A stretch of 64,000 bases of DNA from Gammaproteobacteria bacterium (GCA_965222615.1 CBDCUI010000008.1:448001-512000), one strand, 5' to 3'; numbered from the stretch's first letter, positions 22,512 through 51,416 are shown. Notes: generated from the sequence alone by a model not told the origin. Numbers and translations are program-made.

Positions 22512-25328
22512 CTATGAGGCCAAAGCGGTTGGATGGTCATTATCAAAGGGAAGCTGAGTTTCAGTTTGAGATATTTTTTGCGCATCACTCGCTTGTTCAC
22601 TAGCACTAAAAAAAGCTACCAGCTGATAGAGTTCTTTGGCTTGCTGTGCTAAATCCTCGCTAGCAGCTGTTGCTTCTTCGGCCATTGCTGCATTTTGACT
22701 AGTCAAAGATTGCAAGTGCCCCATTGCTTGATGGACTTGATTGACACCAAGTGATTGTTCATCCGCTGCAGTAGAAATTTCACCAACAATGGTTGTCACT
22801 TTTTCCACACCATTTACAATTTCACTGAGGGTTTCTCCCGATCTTGTTACTAACTTAGAACCACATTGTACTTTCTGTACACTGTCTTCAATTAATTCCT
22901 TGATTTCTTTTGCTGCAGTAGCACTGCGCTCGGCAAGATTTCTTACTTCATTTGCTACGACAGCAAAACCGCGTCCTTCAGTACCTGCTCGTGCAGCCTC
23001 AACCGAGGCATTTAGGGCTAGCAAATTAGTCTGAAACGCGATTTCATCAATTACACCTATGATTTCAGCAATTTGGTTGCTCGCTAGGCTTATCTGTTCC
23101 ATCGCATCGACTGCTTCTTTCACTACGTCGCCTCCATGAATTGCACATTCACGTGCTTCACACGCTAAATTTTTTGCTCGATTGGCATTGGAAGCTGTAT
23201 GTTGAACTGTAGAGGTAATCTCATTCATACTTGCAGCTGTTTCTTCTAGGTTTGTCGCTTGTTTTTCGGTGCGGCCGCTCAAATTGTTATTTCCTTCTGC
23301 GATGCTTGCAACTTTAATATTGACAGAAGCGGATGCTTGCTGAATTTTATTCACTACTTCCGTTAATTTTGCAACGGTTGCATTGGCATCTTTTTTTAAT
23401 TTTTCAAACGCACCTTCAAAATCATCGGCAATGCTTTCATTAAGATTTCCATGAGATACAGCTTCAAGCACACGACCTGTAGCAGAAAATACTTTGGTTA
23501 TCATATCCAGTGATGAATTAAGATTAGTTTTCATTTCCCCCAATTGACCAGGTAAATCATTCTCAACACGTGAATCAAGGTTGCCCTTGGCAACCATTGA
23601 CATTACTTGATGAATGCTACTTAGAGCATCATCAATGGATTGCATGGAACGATTGACGTGTTGTCCAAATTTATTGAACTCTCCTTTTAGTTCAGATGTC
23701 ATTCGGCGTTTGAAATCTCCTCGAACCAATGCATCCATTAATTCATTCAAAGAATCCATAGTTTTATCGATAGAATCCGCAGAAGTATTTACACTATTTT
23801 TGAGTTTTTCTAAATCGCCGTGCACGTTAGAAATTACTCGCCGACTAAAATCGCCTTGTGCAATACCACTTACAACCTCATTTACATCATGAATAGTTTT
23901 CTCTAAGTTGTTTAACAAGTCATTAAAACTATCTGCCGATTGGCCAATCTCGTCATTACTTGCAATGGCAACTCGCCGACTGAAATCGCCGGTAGTGATG
24001 ATATCTACCATAGTTTTTCTCATCGCTTCTATTGGTTTTGCAATCCCCTTAGCAAATTTTAATGCAGCCATGACTAATATAATCACTACGATTAGAGACA
24101 ACCCAGCAATTTGAAATTTGATTCTGTTTAACGATGCAAATGCTTCTTTAGCCTCTATATCAACCACCAATGCCCAGTTAAGTGGACCAAAACTAACTGG
24201 ACCATAACTTGAAAGCACCTCTGTACCAGCATAATTTTTTGACTCTAATACACCTGTTTCAGCAATTCCCTTGCGAATCGTTTCACTAACTATTTTTATA
24301 TTCTTTTTAAAAGATGTTTCGACTGAGTACAATTTTGGGTTTTTATAGGAATCAGATCGTAATAAACCGTCAGATCCTACAAGATAAGCCTCTCCAGTTT
24401 CTCCCATCCCGGAGCGCGTATTCATAATTGCTGATATTTTGTCTAAGGGCATCTGAAATATCAGTGCGCCTACCTTCTTATTGCCGTCAAATATGGGCGT
24501 TGCAATAAAACTGGCTGGTGATGCATAAGAAGGTAAATAGGGTGCATAATCTAGTAGTATAAATTCATCGTTTGATGTTAATTGATTGGCTTGTTTAAAA
24601 GCCTCAGCTAAGCCTGTGTCTGCAAATGGCCCATTAATTAGACTAGTGGCATAGTCTAGTTCTTTAAAGACAGAATACACGACCCTGCCTTGTTCGTTGT
24701 CCACTAAAAATATATCGTAATATCCAAATGCCTTAAGAAATTTTCTTAGACTTGGATGAATCAAAGCATGTGCAGCATCGTAATTTGTGTTTAACGAGGA
24801 AGCATCTTGATTATCTTTATTACCTAACGAAGCTGAATTGTTATAGATGTATGCATGCTGTAAAGCGATGGCTTCAGGACTTAGTTTGTCGAGAAGCTTA
24901 TCTACATCGATATCTTGTTGTTCGTTTAGTTCTTTGAATTGACGTAGAAATTCATTACGATAATAAAGCGAAAGCTCTTTCTTTAGTTTTGGTACATTAT
25001 CAAGGTCGTTTGAATCTTGTAAAAATTTTTCATATCCAACTTGAATTTTCTGAATGCCATCAATTAGTTCGCGACTTGAAGATAAAGTCAATACTTGTTG
25101 GATAATTGTGTCGCTATAGTTTTCGACTGCTTGTATTTTGCTATCACGTAAAGACTCAAGCTGACTATAAGCTTGGTTGGTTATATTATTGTGTGATTGC
25201 CAAACAGCGATGCATGCAGTAATTAACATTGGGATCATACCAATGGGAATAAATGCCGTAACAAGTTTATGTTTAAGACTGCTTTTTACAAGTGCCTTTA
25301 GTGAGCCAGATTGATTTCTAGTGATCAT
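22512..25328 (-). CDS. Methyl-accepting chemotaxis protein (large periplasmic Cache-like sensor, poly-HAMP)
   Basis: Two TMs, GMGETGEAYLVG, repeated GDFSRR HAMP units, IAFQTNLLALNASVEAARAG hairpin tip. Confidence 0.95.
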   Translation of the reverse strand: MITRNQSGSLKALVKSSLKHKLVTAFIPIGMIPMLITACIAVWQSHNNITNQAYSQLESLRDSKIQAVENYSDTIIQQVLTLSSSRELIDGIQKIQVGYEKFLQDSNDLDNVPKLKKELSLYYRNEFLRQFKELNEQQDIDVDKLLDKLSPEAIALQHAYIYNNSASLGNKDNQDASSLNTNYDAAHALIHPSLRKFLKAFGYYDIFLVDNEQGRVVYSVFKELDYATSLINGPFADTGLAEAFKQANQLTSNDEFILLDYAPYLPSYASPASFIATPIFDGNKKVGALIFQMPLDKISAIMNTRSGMGETGEAYLVGSDGLLRSDSYKNPKLYSVETSFKKNIKIVSETIRKGIAETGVLESKNYAGTEVLSSYGPVSFGPLNWALVVDIEAKEAFASLNRIKFQIAGLSLIVVIILVMAALKFAKGIAKPIEAMRKTMVDIITTGDFSRRVAIASNDEIGQSADSFNDLLNNLEKTIHDVNEVVSGIAQGDFSRRVISNVHGDLEKLKNSVNTSADSIDKTMDSLNELMDALVRGDFKRRMTSELKGEFNKFGQHVNRSMQSIDDALSSIHQVMSMVAKGNLDSRVENDLPGQLGEMKTNLNSSLDMITKVFSATGRVLEAVSHGNLNESIADDFEGAFEKLKKDANATVAKLTEVVNKIQQASASVNIKVASIAEGNNNLSGRTEKQATNLEETAASMNEITSTVQHTASNANRAKNLACEARECAIHGGDVVKEAVDAMEQISLASNQIAEIIGVIDEIAFQTNLLALNASVEAARAGTEGRGFAVVANEVRNLAERSATAAKEIKELIEDSVQKVQCGSKLVTRSGETLSEIVNGVEKVTTIVGEISTAADEQSLGVNQVHQAMGHLQSLTSQNAAMAEEATAASEDLAQQAKELYQLVAFFSASEQASDAQKISQTETQLPFDNDHPTALAS

Positions 25329-25969: not shown

Positions 25970-26180
25970 GAAGAATTCCTGTATTAATCTGAGATAACCT
26001 AATACACACCGTAGCAAACATTTTTTTACGAAAGTGTTAAATAGGTCTATTCTAATAGACCGTTTACACCGCTGATTTCACCCATTGAGAAATTTCTGCA
26101 GAGAAAAAATAAAATCCCTTAAACAGAAGTCACAATAATCTTTTTTCTTATACGGTATTTATCATCCACAGTTTAGAAAA

Positions 26181-26653
26181 AAGGTGTCGCTTCGCGACAG
26201 ATCCATTTGCGTGTACTACCAGGTCACATCCATAGTAGGTTGTTAGAACTGCTAGGTAACATGTGACCTATTTTTTTGGGTGAGAAAAGAACATGTGTTA
26301 CTTGCGTGACAACTTCTATTTGGGTGGGATACTCAAGTTATACTGGTTTTGTGTGCCTTCGGCACAATTAATTTGCAGGCAATAGCCGCCTAATTTGAAA
26401 AGGAATCGCTACGCGATATTTGATTTGCGCATAATACCCATGCGCACGTGTGATACCGAGGAGAGGATTGAACCAGGTCGCACCCACTAAAATAAAGAAA
26501 TGAGAAATTCTATCGTGCGACCTATTACTGCTTAGTCAAAAAAATTTCAGGAGTATTTGGAGGTAGGTCTTCTCTTCGTATACAGCATATTCTATTTTGA
26601 GAAGGTGTCGCTTCGCGACAGATCCATTTGCGTGTAATACCCACACGCAAGTG
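26181..26653 (-). repeat. tRNA-linked mosaic repeat array downstream of tRNA-Leu(CAG)
   Basis: 35-bp exact repeat at 26181-26215 and 26602-26636; degenerate copy of the tRNA 3' end at 26451-26474; modules shared with 51036-51329. Confidence 0.85.
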
Positions 26654-26740
26654 TGGTGCCGAGGAGAGGACTTGAACCTCCACGGGATTGCTCCCACTAG
26701 CACCTGAAGCTAGCGCGTCTACCAATTTCGCCACCTCGGC
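26654..26740 (-). tRNA. tRNA-Leu (CAG)
   Basis: GCCGAGGTGGCGAAATTGGTAGACGCGCTAGC-TTCAGGT-GCTAG...GGTTCAAGTCC...GGCACCA; long variable arm, encoded CCA. Confidence 0.97.
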
Positions 26741-26781: not shown

Positions 26782-26811
26782 ACTCTAGCGAAGGGCAACT
26801 TCCTTTGTCAA
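26782..26811 (-). promoter_or_regulatory. Sigma70 promoter for tRNA-Leu(CAG)
   Basis: TTGACA-18 nt-TAGAGT about 40 nt upstream of the tRNA. Confidence 0.65.
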
Positions 26812-26896
26812 CGCAGTATAAATTTGTCCTTATGTGTCTGGATGAAATGTATTGGATTTTCAGTTGTGTTTAGAAAAGGGTAAAGTGCGTTCACCC

Positions 26897-29122
26897 ATGG
26901 CACGCAAGAATAAGAAAAGATTTAAAGACCCATACGCCAAACGAGAAGCGGCGAAGTACGAACACCCAATAGCAAGTCGTGAGCTCATTCTTGAGATATT
27001 GGAAACTAGTGAAGGACCACTGTCCTTGTCGGCGTTACATGAAGCGTTAGAAGTCGATTCAGATGAGGTTGTTGATGCCCTAGCGCGACGTCTAGGTGCA
27101 ATGGAACGCGATGGTCAAATCATTCGTAATCGGCAAAACCACTATTTACCCATTAATAAAGTTGATTTGGTACGTGGACGAGTGGTGGGTCATCCTGAAG
27201 GGTTTGGGTTTTTGATACCTGACGAAGGTGGGGAAGATCTTTTTTTACCTCCTTATGAAATGCGAGTTTTAATGCATGGTGACCGTGCAATTGTTCGGCC
27301 TGCAGGAAAGTCTAAGCGCGGTAAATTACAGGGCAAGCTCGTTGAAATTATTGAACGCCACAATAAACAAATTGTAGGCAGGTATTATAAAGAAGCTGGA
27401 ATAGGTTTTGTGGTGCCAGATAATAAACGCCTGAATCAAGATGTCATGATTCCGGCAGACCAATCTAATGCGGCGTCAAATGGCCAATTTGTAGTAGTAG
27501 CTATTATCGAGCAACCAAACAAATCTCGACAACCGATTGGCAAAGTGATCGAAGTATTAGGGGATCATTTAGCACCTGGGATGGAGATTGATGTCGCTAT
27601 TCGTTCTTATGACCTTCCATACCAGTGGCCAAAACAAGTACTGCAAGAAGCTGAGCAGTTTAATGCAGACTCGATTCAACAGCAGCTAAATAATCGAAAA
27701 GATTTGCGTGACTTAGCATTTGTAACCATAGACGGTATTGATGCAAAGGATTTTGATGATGCAATATATTGCGAACCACGTGAAAATGGTTGGCGTTTGT
27801 GGGTGGCTATTGCAGATGTCTCGCATTATGTGCAAGCAGATTCGGCACTAGACCAAGAAGCACGCAAACGTGGCACCTCTGTATATTTTCCAGAGCGAGT
27901 TATTCCGATGTTGCCAGAACAACTTTCCAACGAGCTATGCTCACTAAAACCTGATGTCGATCGACTTTGTATGATCTGTGAGATGTTTGTTTCTAAAGAC
28001 GGTGAGTTAAAAAGACATGCGTTTTATGATGCGATTATGTGTTCTGCCGCCAGGCTTACTTATGATGAAGTATATCAAATACTTTATGAAAAAAATAAAC
28101 AGGCGCGTGAGAAACATCATAATTTATTATCTGATCTAGAAAATTTACAAAAGACATATAATGCATTACGCAAACAACGCACGAAGCGTAGTGCAATTGA
28201 TTTTGAAACTAAAGAAACCATTTTTAAATTTGATGAAAATAAAAAAATAAAAACAATTCTTCCGCGCAAACGCAATCAAGCACATATGATTATTGAAGAA
28301 TGTATGATCAGTGCTAATGTTGCAGCGGCAAAATTCATTACAAAGCGTAAATTACCCACTTTATATCGAGTGCACGATGGACCAACCGAAGAAAAACAAA
28401 GAGATTTAAGAGAATTTCTACAATCGTTAGGTGTGGGTTTTACTAAAGCAAACAAAGTCAAGCCAAGTGACTACATGGCGGTAATGAAAAAAATTGCGCA
28501 TAGAAAAGATAAGCATATTATTGAAATTATTTTATTACGTTCTATGGCTCAAGCCGTATACAGCTCAGATAATATTGGTCATTTTGGTTTAGCATTGCCA
28601 CTGTACACCCATTTTACTTCACCGATTCGACGTTATCCTGATCTTATTGTGCATCGCGCGATTCGTCATTTGTTAGATGAAAGAAATAAGAATTCATTTC
28701 CTTTATCACGTAATGATTTGCTTCTTTTGGGCGAAGAATGTTCGATGTGTGAGCGTCGTGCCGATGATGCGACGCGTGATGTAGATGCGTGGCTTAAGTG
28801 TGAGTTTATGCTGGATAAATTAGGGCAACATTTTACTGGCGTGATCAACTCTGTTACTGCGTTTGGATTTTTTGTGATACTTGATGATGTTTTTGTAGAA
28901 GGGCTCGTGCATGTAACTGCACTGAAAAATGATTATTATCATTATGACGAGCAATCACATTGTTTATTTGGTGAAAAAAGCAAAATACGTTATAGCCTAG
29001 GAGACACAGTGGATGTGATTGTGGCTCGTGTAAGTCTGGATGAAAGGAAAATAGATTTTGTTTTAAATGAGTCTGCTAGTAAACAAAGCAAAAAAAAATA
29101 TAAAAGACGCAAAAAACATTAA
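26897..29122 (+). CDS. rnr: Ribonuclease R
   Basis: HTH, CSD GHPEGFGF, TIDGIDAKDFDDA, YTHFTSPIRRYPD, S1 domain, basic tail; ATG 26897 preferred. Confidence 0.97.
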   Translation: MARKNKKRFKDPYAKREAAKYEHPIASRELILEILETSEGPLSLSALHEALEVDSDEVVDALARRLGAMERDGQIIRNRQNHYLPINKVDLVRGRVVGHPEGFGFLIPDEGGEDLFLPPYEMRVLMHGDRAIVRPAGKSKRGKLQGKLVEIIERHNKQIVGRYYKEAGIGFVVPDNKRLNQDVMIPADQSNAASNGQFVVVAIIEQPNKSRQPIGKVIEVLGDHLAPGMEIDVAIRSYDLPYQWPKQVLQEAEQFNADSIQQQLNNRKDLRDLAFVTIDGIDAKDFDDAIYCEPRENGWRLWVAIADVSHYVQADSALDQEARKRGTSVYFPERVIPMLPEQLSNELCSLKPDVDRLCMICEMFVSKDGELKRHAFYDAIMCSAARLTYDEVYQILYEKNKQAREKHHNLLSDLENLQKTYNALRKQRTKRSAIDFETKETIFKFDENKKIKTILPRKRNQAHMIIEECMISANVAAAKFITKRKLPTLYRVHDGPTEEKQRDLREFLQSLGVGFTKANKVKPSDYMAVMKKIAHRKDKHIIEIILLRSMAQAVYSSDNIGHFGLALPLYTHFTSPIRRYPDLIVHRAIRHLLDERNKNSFPLSRNDLLLLGEECSMCERRADDATRDVDAWLKCEFMLDKLGQHFTGVINSVTAFGFFVILDDVFVEGLVHVTALKNDYYHYDEQSHCLFGEKSKIRYSLGDTVDVIVARVSLDERKIDFVLNESASKQSKKKYKRRKKH

Positions 29123-49534: not shown

Positions 49535-49711
49535 TTTAATAAAAATTATGTAAACGTACTCCAAGGATAGTGGCGCCCCGAGTAGGAGTTGAACCACCCT
49601 TGCGTGGGGGTAGTCCACGCGAATAGCAGTTGTCGCGTGAGCGACACAAATTTAATAAAAACTATGTAAATGTACTCCAAAGATAGTGGCGCCCCGACGA
49701 GGATTCGAACC
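49535..49711. repeat. Tandem ~61-bp direct repeat (period 116) including the tRNA-Arg 3' end
   Basis: TTTAATAAAAATTATGTAAACGTACTCCAAGGATAGTGGCGCCCCGA.. at 49535 vs TTTAATAAAAACTATGTAAATGTACTCCAAAGATAGTGGCGCCCCGA.. at 49651. Confidence 0.88.
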
Positions 49712-49763
49712 TCGGACTTCATCCTTAGGAGGGATGCGCTCTATCCAGCTGAGCTATCGGGGC
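49687..49763 (-). tRNA. tRNA-Arg (CCT)
   Basis: GCCCCGATAGCTCAGCTGGATAGAGCG-CATCC-CTCCTAA-GGATG..GGTTCGAATCC..GCCA. Confidence 0.96.
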
Positions 49764-49889: not shown

Positions 49890-50720
49890 CTATTTGTTTA
49901 ATTTATTCCACTTATCTAATGAAATTCTCTTAGCTGTAATTTCGCTTTGCTTTCGTTCATTGGGTTCATTGTATGCATAATTAAAATACCAAGTGCCCTC
50001 AATGTAGGATCTTATATTGGGAGCGTTAAAAGAAATAATATCTGGGCTGTATATAGTTCTATAGCAGGTAGGGCTTATAAATGTAGCAGATTTCACATCA
50101 CCGACATTCAAATGAAAATTATGATCTATCTCTATAAGATTAAAGTTCAATATGTTTTTCTCTTTTTCTCTTTTTCTCTCGCAAACTATATCAAATCTAA
50201 AGGTACCCCCACCTTTGTCAATAGCTTCTGGCGTCAGAAGTGACTCATGAGGAATTGAATGTTTAAACTTCCCTTTAAACTCTAAGTTCTGAATTATTAA
50301 AGGTTCATGCCAGCGGTTTACTAACAGTGCATTTACACCATAAGCGAATTCTCCTAAGTTTGTTTCCACCAGATACAAATCTAGTTTATGAAAATGTACG
50401 GTTGGTATCTGAGATTCAATGTGTTTTTTGTATGCAAAAGCTATAATGACAAAGATGATTAAAATCGAAATCAAAACCACCAATTGAAAAATATTATTCT
50501 TCAATTTTTTAGCATTAAAATTACACTTTAGACTAATTGATGAATCACTTGAAATTATCTTATCGAGGAATAAAGGTGTTATTAGCGTTAATGACGTAAT
50601 AATCAAAATTGCAAAGATATAGGGATTCAAATATATTGGAAATGGATTAAACACCCAAGCCAATCCTCCCAATATTGCAGCCCCGATTAAGTAAAGAGTA
50701 ACTTTTGTATCTTTTGTCAT
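49890..50720 (-). CDS. AT-rich hypothetical membrane protein (three N-terminal TMs), probable island cargo
   Basis: 276-codon ORF, visibly AT-rich, lying between the intact tRNA-Arg and its 5' fragment. Confidence 0.65.
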   Translation of the reverse strand: MTKDTKVTLYLIGAAILGGLAWVFNPFPIYLNPYIFAILIITSLTLITPLFLDKIISSDSSISLKCNFNAKKLKNNIFQLVVLISILIIFVIIAFAYKKHIESQIPTVHFHKLDLYLVETNLGEFAYGVNALLVNRWHEPLIIQNLEFKGKFKHSIPHESLLTPEAIDKGGGTFRFDIVCERKREKEKNILNFNLIEIDHNFHLNVGDVKSATFISPTCYRTIYSPDIISFNAPNIRSYIEGTWYFNYAYNEPNERKQSEITAKRISLDKWNKLNK

Positions 50721-50954: not shown

Positions 50955-50993
50955 TTAGGAGGGGGACGCTCTATCCAGCTGAGCTATCGGGGC
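50955..50993 (-). pseudogene. 5' half of tRNA-Arg(CCT), ending at the anticodon loop (att-like fragment)
   Basis: GCCCCGATAGCTCAGCTGGATAGAGCG-TCCCC-CTCCTAA; identical to the intact gene except in the anticodon stem. Confidence 0.85.
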
Positions 50994-51035: not shown

Positions 51036-51329
51036 GAATCGCTACATGATGCTTGATTTGCGTGGAATACCAGGTTTCGTCCATATCTATTAATTAAGAA
51101 GTTATTTGTTACACGAAACCTATCATCTATAGGTGGAAGAGAATAGGAGCGCGCTTCGCGGCGCTTAATTTACGTGGAGTCTCTCCACGCGAGCAGCAGT
51201 TCATTATTTGAGAACGAGGTAATAGGTGTCACTTGCGTGACAACTTCTATTTGTGATGAGCTCCCTCACGTTAATATATTTGTGTGGCTGCACCACCCTT
51301 AATTTGCGCATAGTACCCATGCGCACGTG
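51036..51329 (-). repeat. tRNA-linked mosaic repeat array downstream of tRNA-Leu(CAA)
   Basis: 51226-51253 matches 26295-26322 (27/28); 51302-51331 matches 26423-26452 (29/30). Confidence 0.85.
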
Positions 51330-51416
51330 TGGTGCCGGGAGAGAGACTCGAACTCTCACTCTGTTGCCAGAACCGGATTTTGAATCCGGCGCGTCTACCA
51401 GTTCCGCCACCCCGGC
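51330..51416 (-). tRNA. tRNA-Leu (CAA)
   Basis: GCCGGGGTGGCGGAACTGGTAGACGCG-CCGGA-TTCAAAA-TCCGG..GTTCGAGTC..GGCACCA. Confidence 0.97.

Follow-up and report, generated by a model that had tools for sequence, protein, structure and literature searches.

An apparently lineage-specific two-hairpin module in repeat arrays behind tRNA genes of a gammaproteobacterial genome

Introduction

The tRNA-linked repeats (TLR) of E. coli were first described in 1978, and most of them are presented, in the portion of the literature drawn on here, as having no known function or origin (PMC8144298). In the same portion the family comprises 22 copies distributed over ten loci, and every copy closes with 18-19 nt of whichever tRNA or rRNA precedes it (PMC8144298). 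We compared with them a locus in a 64,000-nt stretch of Gammaproteobacteria DNA (hereafter the window) that is, judged from its sequence, a tRNA-linked-repeat locus built from a lineage-specific module of two hairpins, referred to as hairpin 1 and hairpin 2. Like the TLR of that account (RtT RNA, tyrT operon, RF00391; PMC8144298), its repeats lie directly behind tRNA genes in one to several tandem copies, and copies of the upstream tRNA 3' end are present at 26451-26474 (Leu(CAG)) and 49571-49595 (Arg(CCT)). The module differs from the TLR in length (~50 nt versus about 100-180 nt), in starting at the tRNA CCA where a TLR ends with a tRNA-end copy, and in showing insertion into its own hairpin loop. 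RtT RNA (RF00391) had no match in window positions 25500-52000 at E up to 1.

The archaeon Methanopyrus kandleri carries a palindrome ~10 bp behind half of its tRNA genes, for which a role as maturation signal was guessed (PMC5217627). It resembles the module in being lineage-specific and at a fixed distance behind tRNA genes, but it is archaeal and of different sequence, and the cited part of that source describes no arrays, second hairpin or insertion (PMC5217627).

REP, BIME and REPIN elements are similar to the module as short extragenic hairpins in tens of copies, single, inverted or clustered, with the structure kept and the stems variable. HUH origins and REPs have a conserved loop, freely covarying stems and strand-specific folding. 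Outside genes, an imperfect palindrome of 20-40 nt was found here in many copies, as in REP/REPIN families, and no cognate RAYT was flanked by the module or co-distributed with it. Unlike REP/REPIN, the module is specific to tRNA 3' ends and includes a second hairpin and fixed flanks in its unit.

Tyrosine recombinases process integron attC sites and the CTX phage hairpin as folded strands. The module is like attC and the folded CTX-phage site in that structure is kept over sequence, one strand is favoured and newer units are proximal to a fixed site; unlike attC, its alignment lacks R and L boxes (RYYYAAC...GTTRRRY) and its units are mostly gene-less, and unlike an integron array, the arrays adjoin no integron integrase, a gene present in only 6 of the 29 module-bearing genomes. 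Williams is said to have described in 2002 how tyrosine-integrase islands use sublocations of tRNA genes, with crossover in the 7-nt T or anticodon loop. Such att sites share with our locus the direct repeats that begin in a 7-nt loop between inverted arms and extend as far as the tRNA 3' end, and the tandem accretion; a classical example, with integrase, is present in the same genome at tRNA-Phe. Unlike integrase islands, most inserts at the loci described here are 55-420 nt long and gene-less, and hairpin 1, which is not part of a tRNA, would be a second target. Xer/dif sites have two different 11-bp arms and a 6-8 bp centre and occur once per chromosome, at the terminus, whereas hairpin 1 is multi-copy and palindromic with variable inner arms.

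Results

Array anatomy in the window

The window corresponds to C8:448001-512000 of genome G000 (3.1 Mb, 39% GC, 65 tRNA genes). ARAGORN and Rfam identified three tRNA genes in it, each on the minus strand, so that 26181-26653 and 51036-51329 are true 3' flanks. The features are listed below; coordinates of the array parts were counted by hand and may be in error by a base or two. A slash outside brackets marks a junction.

26175-26199, minus: terminator-like site at the far end of the array, hairpin 2 then CCTTTTTTCT (consensus scan)
26185-26220, minus: right part of hairpin 1 (GG TAGT ACACGC AAAT) and hairpin 2 (29.9 bits)
26221-26269, minus: long hairpin LH-b, AGGTCACAT...ATGTGACCT (sequence, RNA fold)
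26296-26322, minus: half module (AAAT, 5 nt, hairpin 2 with GCAA loop), 27/28 identical to 51227-51253
26353-26390, minus: degenerate module M3 (31.2 bits), with weak hairpin 1, AAAT 26371-26374 and hairpin 2 26353-26365
26405-26450, minus: module M2, prefix CACGT (covariance model, 75.4 bits), with hairpin 1 26427-26445 (GCGCAT, GGGTATT, ATGCGC), AAAT 26423-26426 and hairpin 2 26405-26417
26451-26474, minus: degenerate tRNA-Leu 3'-end copy from the T-loop boundary, GGTTCAAT...ATCA (sequence match)
26475-26523, minus: long hairpin LH-a, AGGTCGCAC...GTGCGACCT (RNA fold -18.6 kcal/mol, z -3.7)
26604-26653, minus: module M1 (covariance model, 74 bits), with prefix CACTT 26649-26653, hairpin 1 26630-26648 (GCGTGT, GGGTATT, ACACGC), AAAT 26626-26629 and hairpin 2 26606-26620
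26654-26740, minus: tRNA-Leu(CAG) gene (ARAGORN, Rfam)
26782-26811, minus: sigma-70-like promoter upstream of tRNA-Leu(CAG), TTGACA, 18 nt, TAGAGT (consensus scan only)
49535-49595, minus: 61-nt copy (89%) of the tRNA-Arg 3' end (25 nt from the T-loop) with 36-nt trailer (sequence repeat)
49596-49648, plus: module inverted relative to tRNA-Arg(CCT) (53.9 bits)
49687-49763, minus: tRNA-Arg(CCT) gene (ARAGORN, Rfam)
50955-50993, minus: tRNA-Arg(CCT) 5' fragment cut off near the anticodon loop, first 27 nt identical to 49737-49763
51038-51121, minus: long hairpin LH-c (51072-51121), right part of hairpin 1 and hairpin 2 (51038-51050) (23.6 bits)
51148-51189, minus: variant module, CGTGGAG...CTCCACG, TAAAT, hairpin 2 with GAA loop (20.7 bits, weak)
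51284-51329, minus: module behind tRNA-Leu(CAA) (73.1 bits), with hairpin 1 51306-51324 (GCGCAT, GGGTACT, ATGCGC), AAAT 51302-51305 and hairpin 2 51284-51296
51330-51416, minus: tRNA-Leu(CAA) gene (ARAGORN, Rfam)

The initial annotation had described a unit shared by the 3' flanks of the two tRNA-Leu genes, and the same two-hairpin layout was indeed found right after CCA in each. Hairpin 1 has arms GCGNNN and NNNCGC in both flanks, with loop GGGTA(T/C)T, and is preceded by CAC(T/G)T. The near-identical pairs reported earlier were recovered as 26181-26220 versus 26602-26641 (40 nt at 98%, the first 35 identical), 26295-26322 versus 51226-51253 (28 nt at 96.4%) and 26423-26452 versus 51302-51331 (30 nt at 96.7%); the sequences at 26403 and 51036 are related but match more weakly. 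The last 14 nt of the tRNA 3'-end copy noted at 26451-26474 match the end of tRNA-Leu(CAG) at 12/14, and the hairpins noticed behind tRNA-Arg belong to the inverted module at 49596-49648. The description of the arrays as mosaics also held. The hairpin-1 pattern GCGNNNGGNTANTNNNCGCAAAT (at most 1 mismatch) occurred 4 times in the window versus 0.00 expected (100 shuffles), and a longer hairpin-1 pattern gave 20 occurrences in the genome versus 0 for its reversed control, which excludes chance.

The segment 26185-26220 belongs to the distal copy of a 40-nt direct repeat whose proximal copy is 26602-26641. LH-a abuts the tRNA-Leu end copy at the junction ACCT/GGTTCAA (between 26474 and 26475), and in the Leu(CAA) array, which has no tRNA 3'-end copy, LH-c is joined at ACCT/GG to the right part of a hairpin 1 (TATT CCACGC AAAT; 51070 to 51072). 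The inverted module is flanked by two 61-nt copies (89%) of the tRNA-Arg end and trailer, and abuts the tRNA 3'-end copy at AAGGGT/GGTTCAAC. A GC-rich hairpin with a T-run is present at the array-end hairpin 2 (26185-26199 followed by T6) and weakly at M2, and most other hairpin 2 copies are without a T-run.

A CRISPR-like array was ruled out, the repeats being non-identical and without spacer logic, as was an assembly artefact, identical anatomy being present in several independent genomes. No polymorphism among samples was seen in low-depth metagenome contigs covering the locus, which break at the 40-nt repeats; two metagenome-contig joints have short sides (28-29 nt) and probably derive from the paralogous Leu(CAA) array, and runs X4 and X5 left 26212-26615 without cover.

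The array lies between a gene for a 938-aa methyl-accepting chemotaxis protein (dCache, HAMP, MCPsignal; 22512-25328) and the RNase R gene (26852-29122), and the linkage of tRNA-Leu(CAG) to rnr is retained in G001 and G014. The tRNA-Arg(CCT) 5' fragment at 50955-50993 is separated from the complete gene by an insert of ~1.2 kb, which contains a 276-aa predicted membrane ORF (49890-50720, minus) with no Pfam match and no paralogue in the genome; the corresponding two tRNA genes of the relatives G007 and G022 are 124-233 nt apart.

Structure and strand of the module

The module of ~50 nt consists of hairpin 1, AAAT, 5 nt and hairpin 2, and its basic form starts at the tRNA CCA (CCA-(C/G)ACNT, then hairpin 1, AAAT, 5 nt and hairpin 2). 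Hairpin 1 has a covarying stem of 6-7 bp, the fixed loop GGGTATT and the flanks ACNT and AAAT; hairpin 2 has a short GC-rich stem of 5-6 bp and a G-N-A loop. Both hairpins were reproduced by RNA folding (M1 -20.3 kcal/mol, z -3.7; two other modules z -1.4 and -2.3).

Fifty-one copies, 30 from G000 and 21 from relatives' loci, were aligned with chance-like and half copies left out, and a covariance model was built from this alignment. Standard pairs filled 96.7% of its cells versus 78.4% in shuffles, and cells with a double change numbered 118 versus 39, a count that none of 500 shuffles reached; the copies are related within and between genomes, so these statistics overstate independence. When the partners were slid by 1-3 columns, pairing dropped to 16-48%. 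Covariation was found in the three inner pairs of hairpin 1 and every pair of hairpin 2, and the loop, outer GCG/CGC and flanks of hairpin 1 are fixed. The non-Watson-Crick cells, read on the module's own strand, comprised 18 G-T versus 3 A-C (binomial p 0.0015, for copies that are not independent), with a like bias on their own strand in the inverted copies. This bias indicates that one strand of defined polarity folds, as RNA or DNA. A G-N-A triloop, which forms a stable DNA minihairpin, closes hairpin 2 in 39 of the 51 copies. No family matched the module in an Rfam search of window positions 25500-52000 (E up to 1), and the two-hairpin module itself, as far as sequence comparison goes, is new and lineage-specific.

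Distribution in the genome

A regex scan of G000 gave 38 matches, 32 of them judged real by the presence of hairpin 2 and 6 chance-like. Nine modules begin 6 nt behind the CCA in which an intact tRNA gene ends (Thr, Leu x4, Glu, Pro x2 and Tyr). The covariance model gave 49 matches at E up to 0.01, and 9 of these start exactly at CCA. The link to tRNA genes seen in the window extends to this genome-wide family, with 34 of the 49 matches located in the 0.97% of the genome that lies no more than 700 nt downstream from intact tRNA genes. A module lies at the end, or within 30 nt of it, in 13 of the 65 tRNA genes.

Most of the 12 distant matches are behind tRNA 3'-end copies that close islands of 1.4-13.5 kb (Met 1.4 kb, Val 2.3 kb, Pro(tgg) 6.4-6.7 kb, Lys 13.5 kb). 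The cargo is an OLD-type nuclease in the Val island, rimK and mgtE in the Pro island and a gene of unknown function in the Met island. No integrase was found in the small islands at tRNA-Pro(tgg), Met and Val, nor beside the window tRNAs. At C9:952324-954105, a single-gene island runs from tRNA-Val(gac) to a 16-nt end copy and holds an OLD-family ATPase/TOPRIM nuclease, a candidate defence gene.

At locus L042 (C7:345976-350286), 25 tRNA genes are packed in 4.3 kb, three of them followed by a module, with HNH endonuclease, SPFH, PcfJ-like and RtcB ligase genes downstream of the tRNA array. The locus is beyond attR (C7:353356) of a 14.7-kb integrase island at tRNA-Phe; a degenerate tRNA-Phe fragment is present near C7:331650, and the surroundings look like tandem islands. 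At C9:724868-725640, two tandem units (241 and 253 nt) precede an initiator-like tRNA-Met, each with a promoter-like region, a leader, the first 7 nt of the tRNA and a module that replaces the tRNA body; at the orthologous tRNA-Met locus of G014 there are three units of this kind, 166 nt each.

The sense strand of the module was leading in 21 cases versus lagging in 11 (hand count), with no strict bias, and a replication-strand bias was dropped because this ratio is no stricter than general gene orientation. Cumulative GC skew placed the origin near C7:650 kb, where the paired modules (C7:653.8-654.2 kb) lie at a distance of ~4 kb, and the terminus near C9:270 kb, where a dif-like site adjoins a short tyrosine recombinase gene.

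Distribution among relatives

When one genome from each of 185,579 species was scanned for the exact pattern, 19 loci came up, and every one belongs to an uncultured MAG carrying the label Gammaproteobacteria, Pseudomonadota, Thiotrichales or 'bacterium'. Locus L019 appears to be a chance match, and in 10 of the 19 the module is directly behind an intact tRNA gene. With the covariance model, the module was detected in 29 of 56 genomes of the bacterial family: in 12/15 of genus g7 and 13/16 of g8, also in g11 and g2, and as one weak match in g6. The model found none in g3 (0/13), g5 (0/3) or G001, a congener of G000. Copy number was highest in G000 (44 at a stricter setting), followed by G011 (33). 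Many copies are common to several genera, so that most events are old.

Orthologous loci differ in their number of modules. The Leu(CAA) spacer has none in G014, one in G007, where it is followed by a long hairpin directly before tRNA-Arg, and two in G022 and the genome of locus L028, the extra module of these two being tRNA-proximal. The Leu(CAG)-rnr locus of G001 has no module and contains three extra tandem copies of the tRNA's last 25 nt, with a period of 136-148 bp.

Junctions between array units

The sequence at C7:653813-653880 has an intact hairpin 1 (GCGTGT GGGTAGT ACACGC), a hairpin 2 and a distinctive 40-nt tail, and represents an empty site. Its paralogue ~240 nt on (C7:654030-654200) is the filled site, with a complete module of ~63 nt inserted right after GCGTGTGGG. 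Five further nested cases, behind Thr, Arg(tct) and Met and at Met, Val and Ser(tga) end copies, have the identical junction, in which the left arm and GGG (one arm being truncated) are followed by a complete module. The left end of inserted whole modules is fixed (A-CACNT) and the right end variable, 7-20 nt after hairpin 2.

The 40-nt repeat of the window starts at GG/TA in the hairpin 1 loop and extends to 4 nt past hairpin 2. Its copies are 381 nt apart, and this interval ends in a long hairpin of ~50 nt closing with ACCT, and a T-run follows the distal copy, not the proximal one. The tRNA-Lys array has a like plan, with a ~43-nt repeat from GG/TA and two 133-nt units, and the blocks between the window and tRNA-Lys repeats end in a long hairpin and ACCTGG. 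The stems of the long hairpins differ in sequence yet are paired. Repeats starting with /GGTTCRA were found in four unrelated contexts: the 25-nt copies of G001 (x3), the 61-nt Arg copies, Ile of the tRNA cluster and the window Leu copy. A long-hairpin junction pattern applied to the whole family proved too loose (background 0-2 per genome) and showed clear enrichment only in G000 (9 vs 0) and G011 (8 vs 1). Together, the junctions and the filled/empty comparisons point to what would be serial insertion at the 5' edge of the hairpin 1 loop and at the tRNA T-loop.

Discussion

What was observed is a module family linked to tRNA genes, its covariation and strand asymmetry, where its junctions fall, and the gain or loss of modules at orthologous loci; the initial reading of an array system that grows at tRNA 3' ends is partly supported by these observations. 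Growth at the tRNA end with a record of past insertions is a fair reading, as extra units are tRNA-proximal and the oldest, terminator-bearing piece is distal. The explanation that we favour, though at about an even chance of being right, is that the arrays grow by structure-specific insertion, in which a tyrosine-type recombinase supplied in trans uses a folded single strand. We infer that such a recombinase would act on this strand with exchange at one loop edge. Small, mostly gene-less units would insert into a 7-nt loop at its 5' edge, and there would be two targets: the tRNA T-loop, giving repeats from /GGTTCRA to CCA or beyond, and the hairpin 1 loop, with the junction GG/(G)TATT. Each unit would bring its own segment from the loop to hairpin 2 and end in a long hairpin of ~50 nt closing with ACCT(GG), and insertion would produce direct repeats of ~40 nt that begin inside the loop. 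New material would thereby come to lie next to the tRNA, and the original right half, with the terminator, would be moved distally.

Several features bear against insertion of this kind. TGG microhomology is present at the junctions, so that comparable products could come from slippage or tandem duplication at hairpins. In the long-hairpin units the left and right arms at the junction do not form an inverted repeat, unlike in an ordinary tyrosine-recombinase core, and the fixed left and variable right ends of the whole-module insertions would not be explained by a single circular intermediate.

The reading that ranks second, which we consider on the whole unlikely although worth keeping in view, takes the module as a functional tRNA 3' trailer RNA, that is a processing, stabilising or termination signal, and the arrays as products of decayed tandem tRNAs and slippage with no dedicated recombination. 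The AU-rich single-stranded linker AAAU-UAAGU between two stable hairpins resembles an endonuclease site, a constant distance separates CCA and module at 9 intact tRNA genes of G000 and 10 of the 19 relatives' loci, and both the covariation and the excess of G-T over A-C suit an RNA of the tRNA strand; in the inverted copies, however, the G-T pairs are retained on the module strand, here antisense to the transcribed tRNA. Module-free tRNA genes carry ordinary terminator palindromes at the equivalent place, and promoter-like and terminator-like sites bracket the array, a fit to co-transcription by consensus only. A T-run is nevertheless missing from most hairpin 2 copies. The Methanopyrus kandleri palindrome, as far as the cited part of its description extends, provides a precedent (PMC5217627). 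A general trailer signal is difficult to reconcile with a copy within 30 nt in only 13 of 65 tRNA genes and with the absence of the module from the congener G001 and from 27 of the 56 family genomes, by which it is dispensable; nor would it account for six nested insertions that share one loop position. If it applied, the module would be a new lineage-specific tRNA trailer signal, of narrower interest.

An HUH nuclease of the RAYT or Rep type would give a REP/REPIN-like element moved by a loop nick on single-stranded DNA with rolling-circle-like copying to the long hairpin, which we regard as improbable. The junctions inside the hairpin 1 loop and the G-N-A triloop of hairpin 2 (39/51 copies) are in its favour, and the conserved loop, covarying stems and strand-specific folding of the module may by analogy be likened to HUH origins and REPs. 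G000 does have a gene that matches the model of REP-associated tyrosine transposases below cut-off (71 bits, cut-off 80), but no module flanks it. Moreover, Y1_Tnp was not found in G007 (100% complete, 7 modules), G019, G022 or G011 and was found 3 times in the module-free G001, and a strict lagging-template bias was lacking. Least credible of all, and very improbable, are units that are DNA copies of processed tRNA-trailer RNAs inserted by a template-switching reverse transcriptase (RT), even though the fixed left end of inserted modules is tRNA position 76, with a variable right end, and module starts adjoin 12-nt tRNA-end copies in antisense. Of the 41 genomes searched, only 10 gave RVT_1, and the five module-bearing relatives included in that set gave none; the single RT of G000 is closest to antiviral Drt models, below their cut-offs. 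This gene (C7:115555-117069, 504 aa), the only RVT_1 match in the genome, has Drt4 and Drt3b as its best matches.

For structure-specific insertion by a tyrosine-type recombinase, the candidate enzyme would be a host Xer or an integrase acting in trans. A recombinase, RT or HUH nuclease co-distributed with the module was sought, and none could be tied to it in the genomes searched. Tyrosine recombinases (Phage_integrase) were present in 41 of the 41 genomes searched and are thus uninformative for co-distribution. In G000, XerC and XerD both scored over cut-off, integrases adjoin tRNA-Phe and tRNA-Gly, and a short one is beside the dif-like site at the skew terminus. That site (C9:261058) was the only one returned by a scan with a 21-nt dif-type motif; a likeness of hairpin 1 to dif was dropped as support, as it is confined to the GCGCAT variant. 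An integron integrase is encoded at C9:397309-398292 of G000 (TIGR02249, 490 bits vs cut-off 265), not near any module. It was found in 6 of the 56 family genomes, 6/29 module-bearing versus 0/27 module-free, an association that is weak and confounded by relatedness. A single classical attC-like site (ACCTAAC...GTTAGGC, 90 nt) at C9:395443-395532, 1.8 kb from the integrase, is unlike hairpin 1. A narrower and distinctly doubtful version is that hairpin 1 is an attC-like site, used as folded single-stranded DNA by a host tyrosine recombinase (Xer or, in genomes that have it, the integron integrase), with tRNA 3' ends as integron-like platforms on which the newest unit is next to the tRNA; if so, the arrays would be a polarised natural record of insertion events and would offer a mechanism for tRNA-linked repeats in general.

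The module makes an unusually legible system, related to tRNA-linked repeats yet distinct, with strong covariation, dozens of copies, clear filled and empty sites and junctions on one and the same edge in both the hairpin loop and the tRNA T-loop. It turns the origin of tRNA-linked repeats into a testable question of structure-specific recombination or processing, and may represent a new class of hairpin target for mobile DNA.

A second class of units, ~170-200 nt long and ending in a tRNA-end copy of 12-19 nt, was found in G000 behind nine other tRNA genes, namely tRNA-Ser(tga) x2, Thr(tgt), Lys(ttt), Ser(gga), Ser(gct), Arg(tcg), Arg(acg) and Pro(ggg). These units contain GGTTCGACAAA-like motifs, and two of them (tRNA-Lys and tRNA-Ser) match the Rfam RtT family below threshold (37 and 28.6 bits vs the gathering score of 45). 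One unit of this class is called a 96-nt 'tRNA-Trp' by ARAGORN.
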